Shown here: piece by piece, positions 12,609 through 64,000 of the stretch
Numbering within the stretch: the first letter of the stretch is position 1
How the letters are laid out: each line of letters opens with the position of its first letter
NCBI GenBank assembly: GCA_044892525.1
Contig: CM097885.1
Span: 32,366,001 to 32,430,000, forward strand
Direction of reading: 5' to 3'
From: Schmidtea polychroa
Lineage: Eukaryota
Length of the DNA stretch: 64,000 nt
The notes under the pieces: generated by a model
Database searches by the model: none
The model's input: only the letters and a program-made list of their open reading frames with translations
Told to the model about the DNA's origin: nothing
Made by a program: the position numbers and the translations under genes

Positions 12609-12772
12609 TGTTGTCTTCTACATTGATTTGCATTATTATTAATAAGTAAGACAACTTTTTCAAATTCTATTTTTATCAAATTAATAACATATTAAAACAA
12701 AGTTTTTAAATATGTTATTATTAATATAAATATTAATTTAATATTTATATTGATTTAATTGGTTTGACTACA
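12609..12772 (-). repeat. 3' LTR (164 bp)
   Basis: Matches the other two LTRs except one substitution and one 1-nt indel; preceded by the PPT on the minus strand. Confidence 0.93.
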
Positions 12773-15618
12773 TAGCCCTCCACCTAGATCAAGGAGTGAT
12801 TTGTTATTGGTTGAAATGTACGCGGGTTTTAACTTGTCTACCGAAACACGAAGGTTTCTTGTCGGAAGTTGAAATTCGAAAGTTTTGAGGTCTGGGCTTC
12901 GACTAATAATTTGGAATGGTCCATCATACATAGCCCTTAAAGTTGTTCTTGTTTCCACTTTAAGCCATACATGAGTGCATGTCTTCAAATCCTCTGGAAA
13001 GAATGTTTTCAAATTTTGTTTTCTAGTTCTTTTAATTGTAGTGTCTCCAGGTAGTTTCCCATTGATTCCAAAGACCGCTTGGCTTGGTGATTGATTATTG
13101 TCTTCTGAAACGACATTTCGAAGCCCCAGTAATACCAATGGTAGATCATTGGCCCAATTTCTATTTGCATCTTCTGAATGTGTTCTCAAAGCCGTCTTGA
13201 GAGTTCTGTGAAATCTTTCAACTTTGTCATTGCATTGGGGATGGTATGGTGTTGTGTGTCTGTGATCGATGTTGTGCTTTTCACAGAATTCTCTAAATGT
13301 GGATGAAATGAATTGCTTACCATTGTCTGTGATCATTATCTCGGGGGCTCCGTATCGAGCTATCCACTCGTTTTCTACTGTTTTGGTTACTAAACTGCTT
13401 GTGATATCAGAGATAGGAATTGCTTCTGGCCATGAGGTGTGTCTGTCAATTATAGTAAGCATGAATCTTTTATTATTTACTGATGGGAGTGGGCCGACAA
13501 TGTCGATATGAATGACTTTGAATTTTCCTGCTTCTGGAAGTTCCTTCAAGCTTGACTTTGTGTGTTTCGTCACTTTATTTCTTTGACACTTTTCACACAT
13601 TCTACACCACTCCCTAATTTGTGCTCGCATACAGGGCCACGCATATTTTGACGATAACAATTTTATTGTCCCATTTGCTCCTGGGTGGCATAAATTATGA
13701 AGCCGCTGGAATTCCCTGAATTGAAATGGTTCTGGCAGTATTATTCGAGGGGAGCCAGTAGACATATCCACTAGAATTCCGTCATCATCTATACTTATTT
13801 TAAATGAGTGATTTGGCTTCAAGGTTTGGGCGAATGATTGTTGTCTTTGTTGATTAATTATTTCATTTTTTGTCATCGGCACAGTCTCAACAATATTGAG
13901 AGTATTGTTGTCTGAATTAGATTGTCTTGATAGGAAATCTGCGACAATGTTGTCTTTCCCTTTGATGTGAATTATCTTTGCATCAAATTCGTTTATGAAC
14001 TGGATCCATCGCCATTGTCTATTGGATGGGTCTTTCATTGTATTTATGTATACCAATGGCTTGTGATCGGTTAGTAATTCGAATGTATTGCCATCCAGGT
14101 GATGTTTGAAATTTTTGATGGCTAAATAGGCAGCTAATAGTTCTCGGTCAAACGTTGAATATCTTTGTTCAGTTTTGTTGAGCTTTCTAGAGAAAAAACT
14201 GATTGGTGTAAGTTTACCTTCTGCCGTTCTGTGATTAAGGCTTGCACCAATTCCAATGTCCGATGCATCCGTGCATACGATGAATGTGCGTTGCGAATCT
14301 GGAGGGATCATTTCAGTGATTTCTTGCAGTTTTTTCTTTGCCGTTTCAAATGCTTGCGAGTGTTGATCTTTCCAGATATATTTACGTTTGTCTTTTGCTC
14401 CGTTTGATGTCAGTTCATGTAACGGAGCCATTATATCCGCCAAATTCGGTATTAGCCAGTGATAGAATGTTACCATTCCAATAAATCGTCTCAGTGCCTT
14501 AGCATCGTTTGGCCTTGAACAGGAGGTGATTGCTTGAATCCTATCGGTTTGGGGTGAGATTCCTGAGTCTGAAATGTGAAATCCAAGAAAGTTAACCTGA
14601 TTTTTTGATCTTTATTTATTGATAAATGTGCATCTTTTAGAACTTTTTCGATTGTTTGCAAATGTTTTACATGATCTTCATTCGATTTAGAGAAAATGAT
14701 TATGTCATCGATGTACGCTCTGGAGAACATCCTGTATGGACGTAGAAGCTTGTCCATGAATCTTTGGAAAGTTGATGATGCGTTCCTCAGTCCAAAAGGC
14801 ATTTTGAGGTATTCGTATAGTACAAAAGGTGTAATTATTGCTGTTTTTGGGATGTCGTTTGCTTCAATTGGGATTTGGTGATATGCCTTTTCCAGATCGA
14901 TCGTTGAAAATATTTTGCTTCCCCCGAGTTGATCTAAGATGTCGCTTATTCTGGGCAGAGGATATTTGTCGACTTTCGTGACTGAGGTCAGGAGTCTGTA
15001 GTCACCGCATGGGCGTATTGATCCATCTTTCTTCTTAACTATTACCAATGGTGATGCCCAGTCACTCTTACTTTGACTTAGGATTCCCTTTTTGATCAAG
15101 GTATCGAATTCAGTTTGAATGGCTTCAAGCATGCGTCCACCCAGGCGTCTTACTGACTGCGCAATTGGTGGCCCAGTTGTTTCGATTGCCATTGCATGCT
15201 CAGAGCTGACTGAATTGCTTCTTTTATTAACATTTGTGATAGCTGTATTTCCGATGAAGATTTTAGCATTTTTGCAATCCACTAGAAATCTATAATATAA
15301 TAGAAAGTCTGCCCCAAGAATTGGGCGAGAAACATCTGCTACGATAAATTCCCATTTGAAATGCTGCTTTTGACCTTCAATCGTAAAGTTTAGAACTTTT
15401 GAGCCATGTACTTTTATGCTACAGTTGTTAGCCGCTATGAGTCTGATCGGTGCAATTCTGGAATCGGGTTTAAATATTTTTGTTGGGATAACGCTGACAT
15501 CTGCCCCAGAATCAATGAGAAAATCATATGATTTATTGTCATAGAGGACTGGAACAGTGAAAATTGCATTAATCTTTGTCGACTGTTGAGTTGAGCATTG
15601 GATCTCTGTCGTCGACAT
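12755..15618 (-). pseudogene. pol: pol (protease-RT-RNase H-integrase), copy 1, frameshifted near 14600
   Basis: LIDSGA protease, YIDD RT, TDAS RNase H, integrase HHCC and DDE; short deletion after SINKD shifts the frame (true continuation NQVNFLGFHISDSGI). Confidence 0.93.
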
Positions 15619-16400
15619 TAACGAGATCGTTGGCCTTTTCCCGACTTAACTGAATCAGACCAGCAACACGGTTTTTGACATTTCCTGGCTTTTATTCCGA
15701 ATCGTCTGTGAAAATAACATATTGTTTCTTCACTCGAATGACGTTCCTTTCGAGTAGAGCTTTCGTTCGCCCTTATGACATTGATTTGATCTTGCAGGTT
15801 CTCCATTGCAAGCTGATGGAAGTTTCCGGCAATATTTTGACTTCCCACCGGTGAGATATGCTGATCATTGATGCTTACGTGCAAGTTGGCGATGTTGGCC
15901 AACTCATCAATGCCAACGTTGCTCGATATTAGAAGGTATTGAATGTGAACTGGCATGGAGTTAATGAACTGATGTCTGAAAATTTTGCTCGTTTCTGGGT
16001 CACCATTGGGTTCCATTATTTTATAGTTTCTTTTTAATTCTCTAAGGAGTTGGCTTGGTTTCTGATCCCCAAGTTCCTGTTTCTGTAAAAGTTTGTTTGC
16101 TGCCTCCGTTGTTGATCCTTTTGAGTCATTAATAATTGCTTCTTTAAGTGCTGAATATGGCTGCTTGATATGTGGATCCATTAAATCCGAGTACTCTTCG
16201 AGAACGCGAGATGGTAAGCTGGTTAACAAGTGAAAATATTTGGTTTTTTCGTTTCTGATTGAGGCCAGTTCCAGTGCTGCGTCCACTTGTTGAAACCAGA
16301 CTGCAACATTGTCGAAAAATGTTGGAATTTTCATTTGAATGTGACTACTTTCTTGAGCCACACTTCTGACACCAATGTTGTCTTCTACATTGATTTGCAT
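15618..16400 (-). CDS. gag: gag, copy 1
   Basis: Open ORF from an ATG at 16400 inside the LTR; CYFHRRFGIKARKCQKPC zinc motif. Confidence 0.88.
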   Translation of the reverse strand: MQINVEDNIGVRSVAQESSHIQMKIPTFFDNVAVWFQQVDAALELASIRNEKTKYFHLLTSLPSRVLEEYSDLMDPHIKQPYSALKEAIINDSKGSTTEAANKLLQKQELGDQKPSQLLRELKRNYKIMEPNGDPETSKIFRHQFINSMPVHIQYLLISSNVGIDELANIANLHVSINDQHISPVGSQNIAGNFHQLAMENLQDQINVIRANESSTRKERHSSEETICYFHRRFGIKARKCQKPCCWSDSVKSGKGQRSR

Positions 16401-16540
16401 TATTATTAATAAGTAAGACGACTTTTTCAAATTCTATTTTTTATCAAATTAATAACATATTAAAACAAAGTTTTTAAATATGTTATTATTAATATAAATA
16501 TTAATTTAATATTTATATTGATTTAATTGGTTTGACTACA
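16376..16540 (-). repeat. Shared middle LTR (165 bp)
   Basis: PPT on one side and PBS on the other; matches the 5' LTR at the two sites that distinguish it from the 3' LTR. Confidence 0.93.
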
Positions 16541-19386
16541 TAGCCCTCCACCTAGATCAAGGAGTGATTTGTTATTGGTTGAAATGTACGCGGGTTTTAA
16601 CTTGTCTACCGAAACACGAAGGTTTCTTGTCGGAAGTTGAAATTCGAAAGTTTTGAGGTCTGGGCTTCGACTAATAATTTGGAATGGTCCATCATACATA
16701 GCCCTTAAAGTTGTTCTTGTTTCCACTTTAAGCCATACATGAGTGCATGTCTTCAAATCCTCTGGAAAGAATGTTTTCAAATTTTGTTTTCTAGTTCTTT
16801 TAATTGTAGTGTCTCCAGGTAGTTTCCCATTGATTCCAAAGACCGCTTGGCTTGGTGATTGATTATTGTCTTCTGAAACGACATTTCGAAGCCCCAGTAA
16901 TACCAATGGTAGATCATTGGCCCAATTTCTATTTGCATCTTCTGAATGTGTTCTCAAAGCCGTCTTGAGAGTTCTGTGAAATCTTTCAACTTTGTCATTG
17001 CATTGGGGATGGTATGGTGTTGTGTGTCTGTGATCGATGTTGTGCTTTTCACAGAATTCTCTAAATGTGGATGAAATGAATTGCTTACCATTGTCTGTGA
17101 TCATTATCTCGGGGGCTCCGTATCGAGCTATCCACTCGTTTTCTACTGTTTTGGTTACTAAACTGCTTGTGATATCAGAGATAGGAATTGCTTCTGGCCA
17201 TGAGGTGTGTCTGTCAATTATAGTAAGCATGAATCTTTTATTATTTACTGATGGGAGTGGGCCGACAATGTCGATATGAATGACTTTGAATTTTCCTGCT
17301 TCTGGAAGTTCCTTCAAGCTTGACTTTGTGTGTTTCGTCACTTTATTTCTTTGACACTTTTCACACATTCTACACCACTCCCTAATTTGTGCTCGCATAC
17401 AGGGCCACGCATATTTTGACGATAACAATTTTATTGTCCCATTTGCTCCTGGGTGGCATAAATTATGAAGCCGCTGGAATTCCCTGAATTGAAATGGTTC
17501 TGGCAGTATTATTCGAGGGGAGCCAGTAGACATATCCACTAGAATTCCGTCATCATCTATACTTATTTTAAATGAGTGATTTGGCTTCAAGGTTTGGGCG
17601 AATGATTGTTGTCTTTGTTGATTAATTATTTCATTTTTTGTCATCGGCACAGTCTCAACAATATTGAGAGTATTGTTGTCTGAATTAGATTGTCTTGATA
17701 GGAAATCTGCGACAATGTTGTCTTTCCCTTTGATGTGAATTATCTTTGCATCAAATTCGTTTATGAACTGGATCCATCGCCATTGTCTATTGGATGGGTC
17801 TTTCATTGTATTTATGTATACCAATGGCTTGTGATCGGTTAGTAATTCGAATGTATTGCCATCCAGGTGATGTTTGAAATTTTTGATGGCTAAATAGGCA
17901 GCTAATAGTTCTCGGTCAAACGTTGAATATCTTTGTTCAGTTTTGTTGAGCTTTCTAGAGAAAAAACTGATTGGTGTAAGTTTACCTTCTGCCGTTCTGT
18001 GATTAAGGCTTGCACCAATTCCAATGTCCGATGCATCCGTGCATACGATGAATGTGCGTTGCGAATCTGGAGGGATCATTTCAGTGATTTCTTGCAGTTT
18101 TTTCTTTGCCGTTTCAAATGCTTGCGAGTGTTGATCTTTCCAGATATATTTACGTTTGTCTTTTGCTCCGTTTGATGTCAGTTCATGTAACGGAGCCATT
18201 ATATCCGCCAAATTCGGTATTAGCCAGTGATAGAATGTTACCATTCCAATAAATCGTCTCAGTGCCTTAGCATCGTTTGGCCTTGAACAGGAGGTGATTG
18301 CTTGAATCCTATCGGTTTGGGGTGAGATTCCTGAGTCTGAAATGTGAAATCCAAGAAAGTTAACCTGATTTTTTGATCTTTATTTATTGATAAATGTGCA
18401 TCTTTTAGAACTTTTTCGATTGTTTGCAAATGTTTTACATGATCTTCATTCGATTTAGAGAAAATGATTATGTCATCGATGTACGCTCTGGAGAACATCC
18501 TGTATGGACGTAGAAGCTTGTCCATGAATCTTTGGAAAGTTGATGATGCGTTCCTCAGTCCAAAAGGCATTTTGAGGTATTCGTATAGTACAAAAGGTGT
18601 AATTATTGCTGTTTTTGGGATGTCGTTTGCTTCAATTGGGATTTGGTGATATGCCTTTTCCAGATCGATCGTTGAAAATATTTTGCTTCCCCCGAGTTGA
18701 TCTAAGATGTCGCTTATTCTGGGCAGAGGATATTTGTCGACTTTCGTGACTGAGGTCAGGAGTCTGTAGTCACCGCATGGGCGTATTGATCCATCTTTCT
18801 TCTTAACTATTACCAATGGTGATGCCCAGTCACTCTTACTTTGACTTAGGATTCCCTTTTTGATCAAGGTATCGAATTCAGTTTGAATGGCTTCAAGCAT
18901 GCGTCCACCCAGGCGTCTTACTGACTGCGCAATTGGTGGCCCAGTTGTTTCGATTGCCATTGCATGCTCAGAGCTGACTGAATTGCTTCTTTTATTAACA
19001 TTTGTGATAGCTGTATTTCCGATGAAGATTTTAGCATTTTTGCAATCCACTAGAAATCTATAATATAATAGAAAGTCTGCCCCAAGAATTGGGCGAGAAA
19101 CATCTGCTACGATAAATTCCCATTTGAAATGCTGCTTTTGACCTTCAATCGTAAAGTTTAGAACTTTTGAGCCATGTACTTTTATGCTACAGTTGTTAGC
19201 CGCTATGAGTCTGATCGGTGCAATTCTGGAATCGGGTTTAAATATTTTTGTTGGGATAACGCTGACATCTGCCCCAGAATCAATGAGAAAATCATATGAT
19301 TTATTGTCATAGAGGACTGGAACAGTGAAAATTGCATTAATCTTTGTCGACTGTTGAGTTGAGCATTGGATCTCTGTCGTCGACAT
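16523..19386 (-). pseudogene. pol: pol, copy 2, with the same frameshift as copy 1
   Basis: ORF translations (375 aa and 573 aa) identical to copy 1. Confidence 0.93.
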
Positions 19387-20168
19387 TAACGAGATCGTTG
19401 GCCTTTTCCCGACTTAACTGAATCAGACCAGCAACACGGTTTTTGACATTTCCTGGCTTTTATTCCGAATCGTCTGTGAAAATAACATATTGTTTCTTCA
19501 CTCGAATGACGTTCCTTTCGAGTAGAGCTTTCGTTCGCCCTTATGACATTGATTTGATCTTGCAGGTTCTCCATTGCAAGCTGATGGAAGTTTCCGGCAA
19601 TATTTTGACTTCCCACCGGTGAGATATGCTGATCATTGATGCTTACGTGCAAGTTGGCGATGTTGGCCAACTCATCAATGCCAACGTTGCTCGATATTAG
19701 AAGGTATTGAATGTGAACTGGCATGGAGTTAATGAACTGATGTCTGAAAATTTTGCTCGTTTCTGGGTCACCATTGGGTTCCATTATTTTATAGTTTCTT
19801 TTTAATTCTCTAAGGAGTTGGCTTGGTTTCTGATCCCCAAGTTCCTGTTTCTGTAAAAGTTTGTTTGCTGCCTCCGTTGTTGATCCTTTTGAGTCATTAA
19901 TAATTGCTTCTTTAAGTGCTGAATATGGCTGCTTGATATGTGGATCCATTAAATCCGAGTACTCTTCGAGAACGCGAGATGGTAAGCTGGTTAACAAGTG
20001 AAAATATTTGGTTTTTTCGTTTCTGATTGAGGCCAGTTCCAGTGCTGCGTCCACTTGTTGAAACCAGACTGCAACATTGTCGAAAAATGTTGGAATTTTC
20101 ATTTGAATGTGACTACTTTCTTGAGCCACACTTCTGACACCAATGTTGTCTTCTACATTGATTTGCAT
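19386..20168 (-). CDS. gag: gag, copy 2
   Basis: Translation identical to copy 1. Confidence 0.88.
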   Translation of the reverse strand: MQINVEDNIGVRSVAQESSHIQMKIPTFFDNVAVWFQQVDAALELASIRNEKTKYFHLLTSLPSRVLEEYSDLMDPHIKQPYSALKEAIINDSKGSTTEAANKLLQKQELGDQKPSQLLRELKRNYKIMEPNGDPETSKIFRHQFINSMPVHIQYLLISSNVGIDELANIANLHVSINDQHISPVGSQNIAGNFHQLAMENLQDQINVIRANESSTRKERHSSEETICYFHRRFGIKARKCQKPCCWSDSVKSGKGQRSR

Positions 20169-40787: not shown

Positions 40788-40849
<62 letters not shown>

Positions 40850-40906
40850 ATCACAATCATTTTGTAGTAGTATAAATAAAACAATATATTTTAAATTACT
40901 GTAGAA

Positions 40907-41414
40907 ATGTCGCAATCTAATTTTTTCGACAACTTGCTAAATGAGCTCGTCAATACAAGTATCACGGAAAGTCTCAGTTGCCTAATTAATCGGACTGAAG
41001 AAATCATCGAGGGGAATCATATTGATTACCAGAACGTGCTGGATATGGTGTCTGGAGACGAAAATGTTTTACTTCAATAGAATCTTCAATTGTCTATTCG
41101 ATGACGAAATGAAGTGGACCCGAATAATTGTAGGGTTCACTTATATGAAAATTATAATTGAAAAGATTTCATGTGACTCAGAACGCTATTATCAGTGGTC
41201 TCAAGATGTAAGATTTTTAAAATCTATATATTTTAATAATATTCATTTCTAGATAATCAAGTCCAAGTTTACTCCATGGATAGAAGCCAATGGCGGATGG
41301 GGTGTATTAAATCAACTAGCCCGCAATGCTAAAGAAACTGACGAAATCAAAAGAAAAATGAAAAACTATTTAAAACTTGCAACTGGAGTTGTTATAATGT
41401 ATATTTTTTTGTAG
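40907..41414 (+). pseudogene. Bcl-2-family protein (Maverick cargo); one intron and one frameshift
   Basis: BH1-like FNRIFNCLFDDEMKWTRIIVGFTY; GT-AG intron 41208-41252; BH2 PWIEANGGW; C-terminal hydrophobic tail LATGVVIMYIFL; 1-nt frameshift near 41062; TATAAATA at 40871 and AATAAA at 41422. Confidence 0.8.
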
Positions 41415-41472
41415 ATATATGAATAAAAATTAATGTTATTGTTTTTAATAGTATATTTAAATGAAAATAATT

Positions 41473-41830
41473 CAATTTAAAAATTTATTAACACATTCGC
41501 AATCATCATCTTCACATTTCATTACATTTTCGACGACATGATCTACACATTCGTTGTACTCATTCGTAATATTTTCCGTATCTTTAGGTTCATCTATAGG
41601 TTCATAGATTTCCTCATCAATTTTTTTGGTATCGGTTTCTTGAGTATCAGTTTCTTCCTGATCATCAAATCCTGAATCTTGAATCTCAACTACCCAGCCG
41701 ATATTTAATGCATTTGCAACTGATAATATATCCTCAATTTTTACACCAGCTATTTCTGCAAAAATTGATTACAAATTCTAAATAATAAATAATTCGGAAA
41801 TTAATTAATCATGTTAACCTTTCTGCAGTC
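41473..41830 (-). CDS. Acidic orphan protein exon (Maverick cargo); 5' structure uncertain
   Basis: Open minus frame EIAGVKIEDILSVANALNIGWVVEIQDSGFDDQEETD...CEDDDCECVNKFLN* preceded by a TTTTTGCAG acceptor; missed by the ORF track. Confidence 0.45.
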
Positions 41831-41967
41831 ATTTTTATCACTTTAAAACTATATTATAAGTTTGTTTATAGATTTCTTTGTTAAATTTGAATGTCATTTG
41901 CATTGATGTTGCAATTTCTTTGTTAATAAAGAGAAAAACAAATATGACTAATACATTAAATACAACA

Positions 41968-42380
41968 TTAAAATAGTTGTGAAAGTCTAGCAGACATAAT
42001 TTTCCAAATTGGAGAATACACATCATTATTATCAACTTTATATCCCTGGATTGCAATTGTTATATACCAATTTTCATTTTCTTTGAAACTGATTTCATCA
42101 AAAGCATCGTAAAATCTTGCATATCTGTTGTTGAACCATGCATGTTGATTACATGCTAGATTTGAATCTATCCGTTTGAAAACATCATCAATAGTTTTAA
42201 CATCTATCATTGAAAGAGTGCCGGATAAGAATTGAAATTCAGTTGGAATTAGCTTTACCGGTGCAACCAATTTCATATTGATTTCTTCTTTCAAAAAAAA
42301 ATTTTGTAGTTGTGGAACATTTGAACCGGTTGTACAAGTTCTTCTTTAGGGTTTTCGATTCTTGAAATTTTCTTGGTCAT
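41968..42380 (-). CDS. Maverick cargo protein, possibly an OB-fold ssDNA-binding protein; 1-nt frameshift in a T9 run
   Basis: ATG at 42380 joins ORF 41968-42294 if one T is added at 42293-42301; C-terminal ITIAIQGYKV...YSPIWKI beta pattern; TATAAAAA ~33 nt upstream. Confidence 0.5.
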
Positions 42381-42694
42381 AGTGAATAATGATTAAAATG
42401 AAATGTTACAGGGTTTTTATACCTTTGACTTATGCATATCAACCAATGAGATTATAGCATGTCTTTGTTTAAATTGCATTCAAAATGCATTGATGTTGCA
42501 TTAATGTGTCATATTATTAATGTTTTATTATTACTATTCTCAAATCATTATTATTATTACCATTATTAATATTACTATTTATATTACTATTATTATTATT
42601 ACTATTCTCAAATTATTACTATTTATATTACTATTATTTGAAATATATAAAAGAAAAAACAATAAAAACACAATAAAAACATTTATTAATACAA

Positions 42695-43104
42695 TCACCC
42701 GAGATCTACAACTCGAGAATATTGAAACCTTCTGAGAGTTTTCACTAATTCCAACTCAACATATCGCCGATAACGATCGGCACAGCAAGAGCATTCGATG
42801 ATGCATTGGTATTCCGGTTCCATATCTTTCTGTCGTCTATCTATCGTAATGTCCCACAGGAATTGATGGAACACTTCTAATATCCTGATTTGGGTTGCAT
42901 AAAATACGAGATCTGGAATAATCTCATGTTCACGGTCATTGAGAATTTCATTTAGTTGGGGGTAAAAATACTTGAGTCGATTTAACATGACTTCGGAATA
43001 TTTATCTGAAAATAAAGACTATAAAAATGAAAATAATAAATTTAAAATTTACCATTATTATCGATTTCTTTCATCAAACGAGCGGCGCTTGAATTTTTAT
43101 ACAT
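42695..43104 (-). CDS. Two-exon orphan protein (Maverick cargo) with a Cys cluster
   Basis: Exon 1 MYKNSSAARLMKEIDNN splices over a GT-AG intron (43006-43052) in frame into DKYSEVMLNRLKYF...QCIIECSCCADRY. Confidence 0.6.
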
Positions 43105-43174
43105 TTTTTAAAATGACATCTTAACAAAAAACAGTTTGTTTAAAACAAACATAAACCAATTAGAAATTAACCAA

Positions 43175-43612
43175 TTAAAAATTGACCAATGAAAATATCT
43201 CATCCCTAACATTGTTAACAAATTCTCTATCCTCCAAATTTCTCAACCCCAGCATGACAACCTTTCCACTAGCAAACACATTGATACATATAGGGTTATA
43301 TTTTAATAGACCTAGTGCCGGAAACAATTCCGGTTCAAACATACAATCACATTTTCTCGACATGTTTTATAGATTGATACTATGTCCCATATCCATAGTA
43401 ACGGTAATTGATTGGATTTTAATATTATTTATTCTATATTGTAATTTATTAATATCCAAGGGTTTTTTACATCCCATGATTCTACATTTACCTGTCTTGA
43501 AAAATATTATCGGATATTTTTCGCTTCTAACGATAATTTGCTGGGGTTTTCCTGGTGGGAACCTCATATTCGATACATCAAAATTTCCTCGATAATTTAT
43601 ATTTGTTAACAT
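43175..43612 (-). pseudogene. Divergent TATA-binding protein (TBP)-like gene (Maverick cargo) with one in-frame stop
   Basis: ORFs 43367-43612 and 43175-43363 are in one frame; IIFFKTGKCRIMGCK, KIQSITVTMDMGHSINL, FEPELFPAL and INVFASGKVVMLG align with TBP ALIFSSGKMVCTGAK, KIQNMVGSCDVKFPIRL, YEPELFPGL and LLIFVSGKVVLTG. Confidence 0.88.
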
Positions 43613-43617
43613 TATTA

Positions 43618-45319
43618 CCGTAATTATCCGAATATAAGACGCATCATTAAAAATTGACTGAATTCAAGAAAATATAAGTAACCCAAATATAAGACGCATG
43701 TATAACTATTACATTAAATTTATATTACATTAAATTTATATTACATTAAATTTATTTTTTGTTTAAAATTAAAATTTCAGTTACTTAAATTTAAATTTTT
43801 ATTTCCCTATAATGTCTTCTAAACGCTGCAGTTATACGACAGGTTTCAAATTGAAGGTAATTGAAGCAGCCGAACGTATCGGAAATAGAGGAGCATCTAG
43901 AGAATATGGACTCAGTGAAGCTAATGTAAGGCATTGGAGAAATAATAAAAATACTTTAAAAGAGTGCAGATCCTCTACAAAGGCCCCTGGCAGAGGGAGG
44001 AAATTCTTTTTTCCTGACGTGGAGAAAAAATTAGTTGAATATGTTCATAAAAGGCGATTTTCAGGTTCCTCAATATCCACTGTAGAAGTTAGATTGAAGG
44101 CTTTAGAGTTAGTCAAGGAGATGTATCCTGGTTCAATATTTAAAGCCTCGGCGCGCTGGTGCCAGCTCTTCATGAAAAGGAATGATATTTCTATAAGAAG
44201 AAGGACTTCAATTGCACAGCGACTGCCGGATGATGTAGAAAATAAGCTGCTCGACTATCAGAAATATATAATAAATTTAAGGAAAAGGCATGAATATCCA
44301 ATTAGTTGCATAGCAAATGGGGATCAGACTCCACTAAGTTTTGATATACCTTCATTTCAGACATTGGATTTCAAAGGAGTCAAGTCCGTACCTATTAAAA
44401 CTACAGGCAACGAAAAGAATCGGTTTACAGTTATGTTGGGAGCTTATGGTGACGGCAAGAAGATGCCACCTTATGTAATTTTTAAAAGAAAATCTTTACC
44501 AAAGAACATTCATTGGCCAGCTGGTATGATTGTTAAAGCACAAGAAAATGGATGGATGAATGAGGAGTTGACTAAGGATTGGATTAAGACTATTTGGTGT
44601 AATGATAGAACAGATGAATTTCGAAATTCAAGGAGGTTACTGGTATTAGACGCATTTAGATGCCACCGTATGCCATGCGTAAAGGAAATTTTGGCAAAAA
44701 ACAAAACAGATCTTGTGATTATTCCTGGAGGGATGACCGGGCAACTCCAAGTTATGGATGTAGTTTGGAATAGGCCATTTAAACAAGAGATGCGAAAGAG
44801 ATGGAATGAGTGGTTTTTTTCTGGAGCTCCATCATTTACTGCTTCTGGAAACAGACGAAAGGTTGATTTAGAAACTATTTGCAAATGGATTCAATTATCA
44901 TGGGATGCAGTTAGTGAGGCAATTATTATCAAATGATTCAAGAAATGTTGTTTGAGTAATGCTATGGATGGATCAGAAGACGATGTTATTTGGCAGGACG
45001 ATATATCTGATGTAGGGAATGAGGATGATGATATGGAAAATGAATTAATGTTTGAAGAAGTGGACGAGTCCATTGAGATTGAGAATTTGATAAAAAGTGA
45101 AGATGAAAATAATGATCTCTGTAATGAAAAAAACATTCTGTAACTAATAAAGAAATATTTTGTATTAATTTATGCTTTATTTCCCTTGCCCATACCGGGT
45201 TTTCAGAAAATTTTCTGAGTAGGAAAAAATATTTCCTGTTATACCCATGTATAAGACGCACCACGATTATCATCCCCAAAAGTGATGAAAAAAAGCGTCT
45301 TATATTCGGATAATTACGG
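43618..45319 (+). mobile_element. pogo/Tigger-family DNA transposon nested in the Maverick
   Basis: Perfect 25-bp TIR CCGTAATTATCCGAATATAAGACGC; TA on both sides. Confidence 0.95.
43812..45143 (+). pseudogene. pogo transposase (Brinker-like HTH, CENP-B HTH, DDE_1) with one premature stop
   Basis: ANGDQTP, LVLDAF and LQVMDV catalytic motifs; TGA at 44934-44936 precedes in-frame FKKCCLSNAMDGSEDD. Confidence 0.92.
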
Positions 45320-45407
45320 TAAATCATTTATGAAAATTACTCTTTATATACAATTTTAGTACCAGTTCATTAAATATAAACAAATACATACTTTTATAAA
45401 ATTTAAA

Positions 45408-46026
45408 ATGGAATTAAGAAATGATGCAGTATACCAAATCGTTGTTCCGAGTGGTAGTGGAAAAAATATTATTTGTTTGCACATTACTAAAATCAAATTT
45501 ATTCCAAACAAAATTCAACAGGATTTATTGGCATCAAGTTGCTGATGAAGAACGTGGATTGACGCAATCAAGTTTCTGTAAATTAAAAAACATGAAAATA
45601 GTAAAGGGATTTGATAAAAACTGGTCCAGTCGGTTAAAGAACGGCGATGTCATCATTATCGATGATTTGTACCAAGAAGCTAATAAAGAAAAAGATTTTA
45701 ATAATTTATTCACAAAAATCAGTAGACATGTCGGTGTAACAGTTATTTTCATAACACAAAATCTATTTCATCAAGGTGGAGCACATCGAACACGTAATTT
45801 AAATGTACAATATTTAGTTATTTTCAAGAACCCTAGAGATGCAACTGTGATTGATTTTCTTACACGTCAAGCATACCCTAACAATCGTAATTTTCTTATC
45901 GGCGCATTTCAAGATACTACAAAAATACCTCATGGATATATATTTTTTGATTTCACGCAACAATGTCCCGATGATTTGCGAGTAAAAACGGATATTTTCA
46001 ACCCAAAAGGTGCCATAGTTTATTAA
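45408..46026 (+). pseudogene. Maverick/Polinton A32-like DNA packaging ATPase, frameshifted after Walker A
   Basis: MELRNDAVYQIVVPSGSGK (Walker A), VIIIDD (Walker B), SRH, ITQNLF and IFKNPRD motifs; 1-nt shift in the A-run at ~45462. Confidence 0.9.
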
Positions 46027-46187: not shown

Positions 46188-46650
46188 ATGAATCTCATTT
46201 CAATGCCCATTAATTCATCCAGACAATCAAGCCAGCAAATTCATGTTCAATCTCCAGATTCCTATTTTTTTAAATGGTGACTGGGAAGTTGCACTGCAAG
46301 ATTTTACATTCGTGTACAACACATTCCCATTTTATAGTCAATGTAAAATTGATTTCAAAAGCAATATTGTGAAAACATGTAGCGGTATCTTTGTTATCAG
46401 TAATTTTGATAAAACATATCATATTCCAAATCAAATATTAGATCCGCATTGCTATATGTTTTACAAGGATGGATTAAATATCAGTTGTGATTTAAACTAT
46501 TTACAATAACATTCGAAACTATTGAAGATGCCAAACGAATGGGCTGCAATAAGTTGAAAAATATTATTACGGAAACCGAGTATTTATTACGTTTTGATCT
46601 ATTTGAAGCAAACATTGTAGTGAAAGAAGAAATCAAAATATTTGTGTATA
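46188..46650 (+). pseudogene. Maverick minor capsid (penton)-like N-terminal fragment
   Basis: HPDNQASKFMFNLQIPIFLNGDWEVALQDF matches the NxxSxFxxxL..I.L.G.WEVAL penton pattern; truncated against the right TIR. Confidence 0.7.
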
Positions 46651-55814: not shown

Positions 55815-58800
55815 CAGTAGCGTATCTAGGGCCGGGCAAGCGGGGCATTTGCCTCGGGCGCCACGATTTTAGGGGCGCCAAATTGATTTTTGAAACCTAA
55901 ACTTTATTTAAAGATTTTCGATTTTGAAATTTGACCAACATTAAAATAACGAATTTTGATTATTTGAAATATATAAACAAAGTTCACCATAAAATTTAAA
56001 TTTAATTTTAGTACTATTTAAATTAAATTTAAATTTTATGGTGAACTTTGTTTATATATTTCAAAGCCTTTCCAAAATACATGAAATTTGAGTTATATCC
56101 AGAACTCAATCGTAAGATTTATAGAATTATTTGTTAAGCTCAAAATTATTTGAAAAAACTTTCAAACTTTAGAATATCAAAGATGCCGAAACCGAAATTA
56201 AGTGGCGCACAAAATCGTAAAAAGGCCAGAATATTCCGAAATGAAGCTAAAAAGTCAAGTCAAATGTTGCAAAATTATTTAAAAAAGGAAAAAGTTGAAG
56301 AAAATGACCAGATAGAGGATATTAAAGAAGACAAACATATGCCGCAGTCAGATTATGAATTTTTTGATTTTGATGCCTCACAAAACAATGAAGAGTCGGA
56401 TTTTGATTATGAAATGACTGAATCCAACAATAAATCATGTCTTTCAACAATTTCAGAAAATATTCCGAATCTGCTTTTGTTCAATGATTTTGGATATTTG
56501 GAATTTCAAGAAGGTTTTCATTCATTCAGTCCAATAGTTTCACAAAAACTAAGAACTGAAGTCATTTTACGTGGCCCGAGTTTATTTCAAAATAATAAAG
56601 GAAGCTTTGCAGTGCATAATGGACGTTCAATTACATCATCATGGTTTAAGAAGAAGTTGGCAAACGGTATATATGTTAATCGATCTTGGTTAATTTATTC
56701 GCCTCATAAAGAAACACTTTTCTGCTTTTGTTGTTTGTTATTTTATAATGATTTTTGTAAAACTGCATTTTCTTCACCGGCTGGTTTTAGAGATTTTAAG
56801 CATTCAGAAAGAGTAAATGATCATGAAAATAATATTATACACCGTCAGAATTTTACAACATGGAAAGAAACTGAACGAAGATTGCCTCAAGGTGCTGGAA
56901 TCGATATGGAAGTTCAAGCTCAAATATTGTTGGAAAAAGATCGATGGAGAGAAATTTTAAAAAGATTTCTTTCATGCATAAAATTCTTAGCATTTCATAA
57001 TTTAGCATTACGTGGTTATAATGAAAATTTGTTGAATACAGAAGGCAATCCAGGTAATTTTCTGGGTCTCTTACAATTGATTGCGCAATATGATCCACTT
57101 TTGGCAAGTCACATGGAACATTCTCGTTTACATCCAGGAACAACATCTTATTTATCACCAGGCATACAAAATGAGTTTATTCACCTTTTAGCTTCAACAG
57201 TTCAAAATGTTTTGATTGAAAATATTAAAAAAAGCAAATACTTTGGCATGATATTTGATTCTACTCCAGATTTACAACATCGTGAACAATTTTCAGAAGT
57301 TATTCGTCACGTTGAAATAGATTTTGATAAAAAAACAGTGGAAATTAAGGAATCATTTCTGGGATTTATTGAGCTAGCTGAAAAAGATGCCGAAGCTCTT
57401 AAAAATACTATACTCAAATTATTACAAACTGATGGATTACAACTCTCGGACTGTCGATCGCAATGTTATGATAATGCGGCAGTTATGGCTGGTCATGTTT
57501 CTGGATTGCAACAAAGAATTACCAAATTGAACCCTCGCGCAGTGTTTATTAACTGCGATAATCATAGTTTAAATCTTGCAGGATTACATTCTGTTCAAAC
57601 TAATCCCATAATGCTAACTTTTTTTGGTGTAATTGAACAAATTTATTTATTTTTTTCAAGATCAACCAATCGTTGGCAAAATTTAACCGATGTCATTCCT
57701 TTGACTGTAAACCGTGAATCAACAACACGATGGAGTGCACGAGCAGAAGCTGTAAAAGCAATTTTTATTGGAATCGATAATCTTGTGAAATTAATTGAAG
57801 ATCTTTCTGATGATTTCAATCAAACATCTGACACAAGAAGCGAATCATACAATTTATTGCAAAATATATTGAATTTTAATTTTCTGGTTTTGATAAATTG
57901 TTGGCATCACGTTCTCGAGAAAATTGATCGTGTACAAAAACGAATGCAAGATCCAAAAATTAATTTTAAAGATGCCTCCGATGATTTACAAGGATTAAGC
58001 ATACATATGCAGCAATTTCTTGAAGATCTATGCATTCAATCAATTGAAGCAGGTAAAAAAAAGTGTTTTGAATAAAGAAAAGAGTGCGACGTATAAAAAT
58101 TAGATTAGGTGAAAAAATGACTGATTCTGGTTTGACTGCTGAACAAGAGTTAGATCGTGTGTTGAAATGCTCAGTTGATAGATTAATTCAAGAATTAAAA
58201 ACTCGATTTACTCGCCTTAATTCATTGAACGAAAATTTTGGATATTTCCTTGACACTGAAAATTTTCTAAATTGCCATGATCCTGCTAAATTAAAAGAAA
58301 AATGTTCAAATTTGGGAAAATTTTACAATTCAGATATTGATGAAAACGAACTATGCAATGAAGTTGCTGACTGTAAAATGCTTCTTAATGCTCGAAAAGA
58401 TGAAATTCCAAAATCACCTATAGATCTTTTAAAATTTTTAATATCTTATGGTGAAGATGTTTTCCCAAATTTAAGAATTTCATTGCAAATTCTTTTGACA
58501 ATTGGTATTTCTGTTTCAACATGCGAGCGTTCCTTTAGCAAATTAAAATTAATTTTGTCATATCTTCGAGCAACAATGAGTGAAGAACGTTTAAATAATT
58601 TGGCATTATTAAGTATTGAGACAAACACTGTGAACAAAATTAACTTTGATGATGTCATTGACAAGTTCGCAAGTGTTAAAGCACGAAAAATTTGTTTGTA
58701 AATTATTACAATAAATAAAGTTTAAAATTAACTTGTTGCAAAATTAAATTAATTTTTTTTAAAACTGCTGCAAATCAATTTTAAAGAGTGAAAATTTTTG

Positions 58801-61399: not shown

Positions 61400-64000
61400 T
61401 TACGGGAACAATGGGAGGAAAAAAGAATCTGTATCACCTGCAACAATATTAATTTTACAATTAAACTCATTGCGAAATGATTCCAGATCCTTATATTGCA
61501 ATTCATACATTCTAAGTTTAGATAGATCAAGTACAGATTGACCAATGTAACTCGGTCTATCTAAACATATAGAATCTGAATTCAATAGTGCTGCAATTAA
61601 ATTATCTGCTATTTTAATAGATTTTTTAAAAGTCGGTTTTGACGAATATTTAACTAATTTACCGGCAGTTGTACAAAGACGAAGATTCATTCTTCTCTTT
61701 AAATTTTCAACTGTTCTGCCGTATAAACTGTTATTTAGCAATTTATAATAATTTTTATCTAAGCTATTTACGCTTTTTGATCTTAATTCGGTATTTGTAT
61801 CTATATATTTTTTAAAAATTGGTGATTGCTTAAATCTTACACCCCTATTTACACGTGTTACTTTAACACCAAGTTCCAAATATAATTTTAATAATCTCCA
61901 ATGAATAACATAATTAGATTTTGGAAGATGAGTTAATAATAATTTTTCAACCTTAGACCCAGCAGGTTTCATTTTTTCAGCAGCTACATGGAAATCATCC
62001 AACTTATCATGAAGCTCAGAAGGAATTACAAGATCAACTTCAAGAGTGTATCCATAAGACAAAGATTCAAGATTTAAATTCCTACATTCATCCATTATTT
62101 TATCAAATCCATCAAGAACCCAACAAAATTCGCCACAAGGTAATGATTGACTTAAAGCCCAGCCATAAAGATTATTAATATCTATATATAGTAACTCGGT
62201 GTTCTCGTGGGTCTTTACGTAATGCTTATTCACAAAAGTAAGACCGCCTCTTATTCCACCCTCATAAAAGCTAAACATTTCGTTTTCAGTTATGAGTTCA
62301 ATTGGTTGGTCTAAGGACATTAATGCAGAAGACCAAGACATGCCTGGAATTCCGAAATAATTCAAAGGCTCTAATCTATTGTGAGCAATTGGTTTCAACC
62401 TAAACTGATGAAAGAAATCAGCCAAAAGAAAACAATCAAGTTTTAGGTAGATCATCATATAATCTAATAAAGTTCGGCAATTAGATTCTACCCAAATCTC
62501 CTGAGCTTTTTCATACTCAAGCTCAGTGACACCCTCCCAGATTGGTGGTAATTCATACGTAGTTTGTAGAACATCTAAAGAAGTGGCGAAATTATAAGGG
62601 AAGATTCCTTTTTCACCTACTATGGTGCCAGAAAAAGCAGAATTAGTAAAAGGCAAAGAATTCAAAGTTTTGACTGCTTTAGCCAAAGAATCATTGACAA
62701 ATTGATATGAATCAATGAATCTTAGGCTAATTTTGCCTAAATGAGCAATCAAAGATATAAATTTTTCCGTAGTTATTGGGATGCACCCTAAATTCCAATT
62801 TTTAAATTTATTTAATCCATATTTAAGTATATTCAAGTTGTGAAATACGATAGGCAAAATTTTATTTATTTTTCTATTTACGTTACATGTGCTACAAGCT
62901 GCACCCAAGTATTTGCCCGTAAAATGATCGTGATCTCTAACAGGATCCACGATAGATTTCAAACAAAGATAACAAACCGTTGAATTAACGAATTGTTGTT
63001 GCTCAATTTTCGTTAATTTAATCATTGGTTTCCTACCCATTTTATAATAAAAAGGAAGAACCTTATTTAATGCTATATCCTCTATAGCACTTAAAAAACT
63101 CTCGACGCAATCTAAACCTATGAACTGCTGATAAGATTTAGATCCGTCAAAGTTATTTACTAGTAAAAGACCAGCAGATATTGGCATGTGTCGCTGAAAA
63201 TGATCATTATCACAAGGTAAAATAGCCTCAAAATCGGCATAAACTACGAAAGGAGGAGTTACTGTTTTCGACCAGTCAGTAAACTGTAAGAATTTATTTT
63301 GAGGGAAAGTATAAAGAGTAGTTCCTAATTGATTGCGTTTGCATAATATTTCATGTTTTTCTAGTGCGTTTCTATTTTTAAAACCATTCAAACATCGATG
63401 ACACCATAATGATTGTATGCGTGTAGGACAAGTAGTGTTGATACCACAATTCAGTAACCTATTTAAATTGCTTATAGCAACGTAATGGAAATTGTTCCCT
63501 TTATTTAATAATAGTAAATTAATTACTGTTCCATTTAAAACTTTGGAACGATGTATAATGTCTAAATGTGGGTGTTTTAAAACGTAATTATCTGTTAATT
63601 GTTTGTTATTATCATAAGAAAAAACGTTAATTATTAAGCCTGGATTTTTGGCCTCGAATTTTCTAATGTCTTTTAATTTCATGGGTAAGTCTAATGGATT
63701 ATATATTAACTCAGATAAATTATAACTGGATGTTCTATTTCTATATTGTTTAATAACTTCATCATATTTTAAAATAGCTAAAATGCTATATAAAAAACAT
63801 GAATCGTCGGTGTTTTTTACATTAATTAAACAATATTTATTTTTTAGACAAGTAGGTAGTTCAATGAAACTTCTACCACTTAATCTACTTAGCCTACTTA
63901 TCTTTGTTATGGTGAAGTGGATTTCAGTTATTTTTTTTATGATCCAGCTACTACCTAACTCTGTGATATTACTTATTTTCTCGTTTAGTTCCCTAATGCC
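61400..64000 (-). CDS. Protein-primed family B DNA polymerase (group 2 Polinton type), C-terminally truncated; start lies beyond the window
   Basis: Frame open from 64000 (GSSW...SFIELP...INVKNTDDSCFLYSILA); C2H2 finger; exonuclease YADFE; EndoVII-like CYLC..RDHDHFTGKYLGAACSTCN; YIDINNLYG, KLLNNSLYG and GDTDS, then an abrupt stop. Confidence 0.93.
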   Translation of the reverse strand, partial: GIRELNEKISNITELGSSWIIKKITEIHFTITKISRLSRLSGRSFIELPTCLKNKYCLINVKNTDDSCFLYSILAILKYDEVIKQYRNRTSSYNLSELIYNPLDLPMKLKDIRKFEAKNPGLIINVFSYDNNKQLTDNYVLKHPHLDIIHRSKVLNGTVINLLLLNKGNNFHYVAISNLNRLLNCGINTTCPTRIQSLWCHRCLNGFKNRNALEKHEILCKRNQLGTTLYTFPQNKFLQFTDWSKTVTPPFVVYADFEAILPCDNDHFQRHMPISAGLLLVNNFDGSKSYQQFIGLDCVESFLSAIEDIALNKVLPFYYKMGRKPMIKLTKIEQQQFVNSTVCYLCLKSIVDPVRDHDHFTGKYLGAACSTCNVNRKINKILPIVFHNLNILKYGLNKFKNWNLGCIPITTEKFISLIAHLGKISLRFIDSYQFVNDSLAKAVKTLNSLPFTNSAFSGTIVGEKGIFPYNFATSLDVLQTTYELPPIWEGVTELEYEKAQEIWVESNCRTLLDYMMIYLKLDCFLLADFFHQFRLKPIAHNRLEPLNYFGIPGMSWSSALMSLDQPIELITENEMFSFYEGGIRGGLTFVNKHYVKTHENTELLYIDINNLYGWALSQSLPCGEFCWVLDGFDKIMDECRNLNLESLSYGYTLEVDLVIPSELHDKLDDFHVAAEKMKPAGSKVEKLLLTHLPKSNYVIHWRLLKLYLELGVKVTRVNRGVRFKQSPIFKKYIDTNTELRSKSVNSLDKNYYKLLNNSLYGRTVENLKRRMNLRLCTTAGKLVKYSSKPTFKKSIKIADNLIAALLNSDSICLDRPSYIGQSVLDLSKLRMYELQYKDLESFRNEFNCKINIVAGDTDSFFLPLFP

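Follow-up and report, generated by a model that had tools for sequence, protein, structure and literature searches.

What is a miniature TATA-binding protein (TBP) doing in a Maverick element, and which promoters would it serve? The question is raised by one frame in the window, that is, the whole stretch of 64,000 nucleotides from Schmidtea polychroa analysed here, which is AT-rich, filled with transposons and part of an animal genome of 781 Mb. A first-pass annotation had described this frame as a shortened, asymmetric TBP-like protein encoded by a Maverick, and had proposed either an element-specific TBP or a TFIIB decoy. We find it probable that the gene, called mini-TBP below, encodes an element-specific TBP of altered specificity which runs an early-to-late switch.

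The reported frame of 146 codons with one in-frame TAA was recovered as 145 codons and a stop, the TAA being codon 82 (Table 1), and the motifs FFKTGK, FEPELFPAL and VFASGKVV are all present as quoted. The Pfam search then recommended, with PF00352, scored 59.8 bits (E=2.3e-16), the cut-off being 22.9 bits. Its best TBP stretch covers residues 63-128, which form repeat 2, in agreement with the claim that this repeat is the better conserved. Every one of the 35 sequence matches in the PDB is a TBP or a TBP fusion, the best being the archaeal TBP 2z8u (E=1.6e-13).

Table 1. Positions of mini-TBP, of the surrounding Maverick remnant and of other mobile elements in the window.
Feature	Position	Strand	Evidence or remark
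LTR-retrotransposon gag-pol frames, two identical tandem sets	12755-20168	-	possibly duplication or assembly artefact
Maverick remnant, left part, ~80% identical to intact copies	40846..43617	.	sequence comparison
Weak Bcl-2-like remnant in left Maverick part	near 40.9-41.4 kb	.	Pfam / sequence comparison
Second candidate late box, before acidic ORF	41863..41870	-	motif scan
SSB-like neighbour gene (T7 gp2.5 / Enc34 resemblance)	41968..42345	-	model of a relative, not the window copy
Small element ORF downstream of mini-TBP, no credible Pfam match	42695..43018	-	ORF, Pfam search
Mini-TBP gene (145 aa), broken copy	43175..43612	-	ORF, Pfam, PDB sequence match, family comparison
In-frame TAA, codon 82	43367..43369	-	private to the window copy among the best 150 of 4105 genome matches
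Pogo/Tigger-like DNA transposon, between mini-TBP start codon and promoter	43618..45319	+	inverted ends, TA duplication
Pogo/Tigger-like transposon ORF	43812-44936	+	Pfam DDE_1 + HTH_Tnp_Tc5
Canonical TATA box TATATAAAG of mini-TBP gene, now severed from the gene	45342..45350	-	comparison with uninterrupted copies
Candidate late box TATAAACA	45375..45382	+	32 nt before packaging-ATPase ATG
A32-like packaging ATPase, head-to-head with mini-TBP, frameshifted near start	45408..46026	+	Pfam, comparison with copies
Penton (minor capsid) gene fragment	46204..46647	+	comparison with intact copies
hAT-like transposase (DUF4371), two frames	56183-58701	+	
pPolB with endonuclease VII-like insert	61400-64000	-	~65% DNA identity to L046 copy

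The window copy itself is non-functional, because its frame is broken by the TAA and because the pogo-like transposon, unnoticed in the earlier reading, sits between its start codon and its TATA box. In uninterrupted copies, a canonical TATA box lies at most 60 nt from the mini-TBP ATG in all 29 examined, and the spacer of about 100 nt between mini-TBP and the packaging ATPase carries this TATA box and a second motif, termed here the late box, back to back (29/29). The head-to-head arrangement with the ATPase, along with the integrase, penton, capsid, adenain and pPolB genes of intact copies, bears out the Maverick origin that had been assigned; in the window copy, the integrase region between the ATPase and the penton fragment is absent. 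The pPolB gene on the right of the window is so distant from the L046 copy that it derives from another subfamily copy.

Stop-free copies, which the first-pass annotation suggested looking for, are the rule: among the best 150 of 4105 genome candidates, which were the ones scored, the window copy has the TAA, one other has a TGA and the remaining 148 are free of stops. The 29 other copies that were fetched differ by 0.85% on average, and the family has therefore spread recently in this genome, which also harbours relatives at 54-60% identity in three more subfamilies. A database search retrieved 95 relatives among 96 candidates, at 37-89% identity, and a profile search returned 715 representatives at E<=1e-10, ordinary TBPs included, with lengths that grade from about 145 residues up to 180. 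Between subfamilies, dN/dS ranges from 0.09 to 0.31 where dS is unsaturated, values that indicate purifying selection on the family. In a midpoint-rooted tree of 64 rows hand-chosen from the search matches (46 family members, six TBP-like frames of the host and 12 other TBPs with two repeats), a branch (100/95) separates all 46 family rows from the host frames and the other two-repeat TBPs. Searched by blastn, six host TBP loci gave matches of 16-35 nt only and no extended similarity at the DNA level, and the earlier view that mini-TBP did not arise as a processed copy of host TBP stands. The host itself possesses at least six TBP-like loci (L128-L133), several of them divergent.

By gene content, the carrier is a Maverick/Polinton element. 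Genes for pPolB, an rve integrase, an A32-like ATPase, adenain and the major and minor capsid proteins surround copies L042-L046 and relatives L058, L062, L102 and L111; pPolB and the ATPase have Pfam support, and the capsid and penton labels come from position or similarity, without such support. Across 81 metagenome and IMG/VR loci, most of them 1-5 kb long and three of them Polinton loci with two-repeat TBPs, the neighbours of the TBP gene include the ATPase (24 loci), integrase (15), capsid (12), penton (11) and pPolB (7), and an SSB-like gene lies beside the TBP gene in 21. No RNA polymerase was seen among the genes of the mini-TBP elements surveyed, and no TFIIB among 21 element proteins scanned. 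Parts of the element, mini-TBP included, are covered by contigs from four runs that may be RNA; these contigs carry no information on strand, level or start.

A number of side observations concern these neighbours and the host. Modelled on a relative (L049:1503-1838), the SSB-like family shows an OB-fold like those of T7 gp2.5, Enc34 SSB and ASFV CP312R, the top four rows having middling Z scores of 6.7-7.8 over 103-109 residues. Clusters C14, C17 and C25 resemble it by eye, and an ESM Atlas search with this neighbour gave no usable match. The elements also carry cargo at L082:1918-3330, L046:8695-9186 and L042:2718-3029, which comprises an LRR protein, a RING protein and a gene with weak likeness to Bcl-2. 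In another Polinton (L126:664-2731), a two-repeat TBP has a pair of PC4-like genes as neighbours (E=3.6e-21 for the first, a weak match for the second), and the Polinton-like contig L125 (2065-3585) has two adjacent TBP-like genes, of which one has two repeats and the other a single Pfam repeat. In the host, single-frame TFIIB-like genes of about 301-310 aa are expanded (L039:1180-2094, L141:4682-5587 and 11 more on C1/C3, some in tandem); no Maverick genes were seen around the one at L141.

The structure prediction that had been advised was run on a natural stop-free copy, not on the window copy, with 137 aligned rows, and yielded a TBP saddle with a pLDDT of 96.4. All 145 residues of the predicted model superpose on residues 66-240 of yeast TBP (1ytb; Z 13.2, rmsd 2.4 Å) and the sheet of both repeats is retained; as modelled, mini-TBP is a whole two-repeat TBP saddle. 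The model starts at yeast residue 66, in accordance with the reported lack of an N-terminal extension, and the suspected loss of helical segments in repeat 1 appears in it as the absence of H1 and the reduction of H2 to a 3-residue turn. Between the equivalents of yeast N69 and F116 the spacing is 34, where canonical TBP has 47, and between those of G125 and E186 it is 46, where canonical TBP has 61; among 143 family proteins these segments mostly measure 34-41 and 46-52, with a minority near-canonical. The H2 segment is 15 residues shorter, and the basic helix H2 (K133, K138, K145) is absent, no long helix being present in the model.

The DNA-binding face has been rebuilt. Residues were mapped by hand via canonical TBP, with motifs as anchors, and hhalign agrees with this mapping from residue 31 on, repeat 2 included. 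Among the 137 rows, the changes in repeat 1 are V71N (94%), F99P (97%), V122R (98%) and T124M (100%), F99P being the loss of the NPKRF phenylalanine already remarked upon; further changes are N159S (92%), V161T (86%), I194R (87%), V203C (91%) and L205N (100%). Neither the canonical minor-groove set (N69/T124, N159/T215) nor the hydrophobic face is kept, as T124M, N159S, V122R, L205N and I194R attest. The three of four phenylalanines that were said to persist are F38, F97 and F113 of mini-TBP, equivalent to yeast F116, F190 and F207. The stirrup glutamates E186 and E188, also claimed to be kept, occur in 93% and 98% of the family rows, and it is from this conservation that TFIIB binding by mini-TBP may be deduced. 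According to PMC1636458, I194, V203 and L205 are the three altered-specificity positions of the yeast mutant TBPm3. A face so different and yet near-invariant within the family predicts a different DNA target. Mini-TBP is thus a member of the TBP superfamily (PF00352) that departs from a canonical TBP orthologue in everything tested except the stirrup.

A scan of promoter segments from -80 to +20 at start codons, with near-copies removed and 1708 segments as background, separated two promoter classes. ATAAAC was the top 6-mer de novo, present in 80 of 115 segments (p=8e-65 against background). Extended to ATAAAC[AG], it precedes the ATPase in 23 of 26 segments against 5.3% in the background, and is found in 17/20 segments for the pV-like gene, 7/9 for PLA2, 10/14 for capsid and 9/16 for penton. 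It is patchier for other genes of the virion module (integrase 7/15, protease 3/7, PZ 1/8), and before presumed early genes it occurs in 3/5 segments for C14, 3/22 for the SSB-like gene and 1/5 for pPolB. On the reverse strand, it was found in none of the virion-module gene sets. At 110 sites, T (61%) or C (30%) stands before ATAAAC and A (80%) or G (16%) after it; read in TATA register, the late box spans 8 bp and has its C at position 7. In virion genes it lies about 35 nt ahead of the ATG, and before the ATPase 17 of 24 sites fall at -31 to -37. Altogether, 138 virion-module segments gave 83 occurrences of ATAAACA and 19 of ATAAACG, against three of TATAAAA[AG]. As a side observation, the LRR protein also stands behind a late box (5/5).

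The mini-TBP gene itself belongs to the other class, with a late box in one of 58 segments and a canonical TATA in 25 (TATA background 6.4%). In this early class, an initiator follows the TATA by 29-33 nt, with 28 matches among 49 TATA segments; the same scan found no initiator spacing after the late box. The element's ordinary TATA boxes, which had been put forward as the binding target, precede early genes such as this one, and the predicted target is instead (T/C)ATAAAC(A/G). Where the box falls inside the 3' end of the ATPase gene, TAT or CAT followed by AAA is used in 19 rows of 19 against 0.46 expected from the same genes, a statistic made optimistic by the relatedness of the rows, and this codon use argues for a constraint on the DNA. 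Over the box, the encoded amino acids switch from YKQ to HKR and back within the limits that the DNA motif sets.

The box also follows the gene from element to element: it was tallied in 24 of 27 elements with a family TBP and in none of six where no family TBP was detected, four of these six being partial contigs whose TBP gene may lie outside. Among five loci chosen by their ATPase alone, L165 is the only one to have a family TBP, and it has the box as well (at the ATPase, pV-like and integrase genes); the partial loci L164, L166, L167 and L168 have neither. In a second Maverick family of the same genome, no TBP match was found in ten 10-kb stretches and no late box in 48 gene segments. By eye, many ATGs of that family (L154-L163) are preceded by CATTTT at about 15-20 nt. 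The late box is likewise absent from L126, the Polinton with an ordinary two-repeat TBP. IMG/VR scans with ATPase and capsid queries gave 0 loci and therefore leave few independent controls; a scan with the family alignment gave a single locus, carrying an ordinary two-repeat TBP. When a distant ATPase or capsid served as query against this same genome, the top matches, not individually checked, resemble the TBP-bearing group in frame length and place. As the family is one lineage, the co-occurrence may go back to a single evolutionary event. Covariation between residues and bases was seen once for and once against: L121, whose mini-TBP is divergent, has ATAAAT for ATAAAC at all three corresponding promoters (110, 1190, 1853), by sequence a concerted switch, and combines Q194/H203 with ATAAAT; L117 combines C194/H203 with ATAAAC.

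The binding steps, start sites and timing that we infer would run as follows. Host TBP/TFIID and Pol II would transcribe mini-TBP and the other early genes through TATA and initiator, as suggested by the promoter anatomy. Mini-TBP would then bind (T/C)ATAAAC(A/G) before the genes for packaging, capsid and other virion functions; at position 7, its rebuilt concave face would accept a G:C pair that host TBP would tolerate poorly. The intact C-terminal stirrup would recruit host TFIIB, and hence host Pol II. Helices H1 and H2 of TBP repeat 1 carry docking sites for TAF1, Mot1, Brf1 and TFIIA. Their loss would remove these sites, and mini-TBP would thereby stay outside TFIID and TFIIIB and escape host control. 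As for host-type proteins, Table 4 of PMC10005294 credits a plant TBP with 27% activity on TATAAACG, and a passage of PMC4402545 citing Patikoglou 1999 states that a G in the box fits only with Hoogsteen pairs.

One tension runs through this scheme: the strictest changes (194, 203 and 205) contact base pair 2 in canonical TBP, whereas the box differs at position 7. Either base pair 7 is read by the repeat-1 changes V71N, V122R and F99P, or the protein is bound in the reverse orientation. Mini-TBP may lie reversed on its box, because the bottom strand YGTTTATR has at position 2 a G, which the repeat-2 positions of TBPm3 accept.

Other explanations of the gene and its box have to be weighed against this switch. 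The box could be a deliberately weak TATA for host TBP, fired late after template amplification, with mini-TBP devoted to another job such as autoregulation, binding at the replication termini or bending DNA for packaging. The residual activity of the plant TBP (27%, as tabulated in PMC10005294) and the fact that wild-type TBP has been crystallised on the C(-25) variant (1qn3) are in favour of such a box, and the frequent SSB-like neighbour would suit another job for the protein; we nevertheless judge this unlikely, since many substitutions would weaken a TATA box, yet position 7 is almost always C, and since the box is absent from elements without the mini-TBP gene. Quite unlikely, too, is the decoy of the earlier proposal, in which the stirrup would soak up TFIIB or host TATA would be blocked, shutting off the host, while something else reads the box. 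The conservation of E186 and E188 and the far better preservation of repeat 2 than of repeat 1 agree with a decoy, as does the loss from repeat 1 of the loop phenylalanine that is most important for kinking in simulations, according to PMC5809078. However, a decoy needs no near-invariant new residues on the concave face, repeat 1 (N6, R44, M46) included, and it leaves unexplained why the box tracks the mini-TBP gene. The distinct conserved DNA face and the matching box clearly favour the other half of that proposal, the element-specific TBP.

It is very unlikely that the box is bound by a host factor such as Forkhead, or is a variant poly(A) signal, with shared ancestry as its only link to mini-TBP. 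The Forkhead core is RYAAAYA, which ATAAACA fits, and the co-occurrence of box and gene is phylogenetically non-independent; yet the box keeps a constant distance from the ATG and is found where a divergent gene lies upstream. Both identifications were rejected on motif counts in the 138 virion-module segments, with no GTAAACA, TGTTTAT or TGTTTAC for Forkhead and AATAAAC in four segments for the poly(A) signal. Hardly credible, finally, is the neutral capture of a functionless host TBP pseudogene. The stop and the severed promoter of the window copy would fit it, but stops are absent from 148 of the other 149 top matches, dN/dS is low, the relatives are numerous and diverged, and no extended match to host TBP DNA exists; for the family this reading is refuted, and it is true only of the dead copy in the window.

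If the proposed switch is true, a programmed virion phase persists in these "transposons", which also possess a natural orthogonal TBP-promoter pair. This bears on whether animal Mavericks/Polintons are still viruses and on how capsid genes could be timed without an RNA polymerase of their own. A dedicated TBP and its late box would supply a motif for virion-gene promoters and a marker of elements capable of a late phase, as well as a natural experiment on dispensable TBP surfaces and on the rewiring of TATA specificity. We give somewhat better than an even chance to the broader proposal that a widespread clade of animal Mavericks has a herpesvirus-like early/late cascade built on the code YATAAACR and a single orthogonal TBP of 145 aa, the smallest natural one and stripped of its docking sites. 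It would represent a second, independent origin of the herpesvirus-type late-gene strategy based on a viral TBP, in a far smaller form.

Set beside known systems, mini-TBP shares with cellular TBP (1ytb, 2z8u) the full-length two-repeat saddle, the EPELFP stirrup and three of the four intercalating phenylalanines. It differs in being some 30 residues shorter, without H1 and H2 in repeat 1, in having proline for the loop phenylalanine and nine DNA-face positions fixed otherwise, and in forming a separate clade. The TBPs of NCLDVs and mirusviruses are, like mini-TBP, divergent virus-encoded TBP folds. The best BFVD fold match is the TBP of Heterosigma akashiwo virus (E=2.2e-8), and the matches at E<=0.001 are longer than mini-TBP (186-608 aa, 7-20% identity). 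Most giant viruses pair their TBP with an RNA polymerase of their own, unlike the mini-TBP elements surveyed.

By title and abstract, none of the papers listed in the literature searches describes the family or its box; bioRxiv supplements, Repbase and subscription papers may mention the gene. A "TBP" label appears in the maps of adintoviruses and MELD viruses of Starrett et al. (2021, PMC8502044; Fig. 5 legend), and from the legend this may be either the same family or a two-repeat TBP like that of L126. Section 3.4 of that article describes no mechanism or promoter for it, the searchable portion of its supplement gave no match, and the main texts of PMC10748475 and of a 2026 PLV preprint contain neither "TBP" nor "TATA".

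The laboratory counterpart is TBPm3 (I194F, V203T, L205V; PMC1636458), which is changed at the same three positions. Mini-TBP is natural, has R, C and N there and adds the repeat-1 changes. The base that TBPm3 accepts is a G at base pair 2, whereas the late box has its C at position 7. The closest functional model comes from the herpesvirus TBP mimics (KSHV ORF24, EBV BcRF1, HCMV UL87), with which mini-TBP is convergent without being a member, its fold similarity to BcRF1 being weak (E=0.033). In that system, as given in PMC6541308 and PMC7498053, a viral protein with a TBP fold acts with host Pol II at virion genes, on a minimal modified TATA (TATT) about 30 bp upstream. The analogue of the TATT late promoter would here be YATAAACR, enriched in the sequence segments before virion genes. 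For ORF24, contact with Pol II is made by an additional N-terminal domain, and five further viral proteins are required (same sources). Mini-TBP has no such domain and consists of a bare 145-aa core with its TFIIB stirrup.
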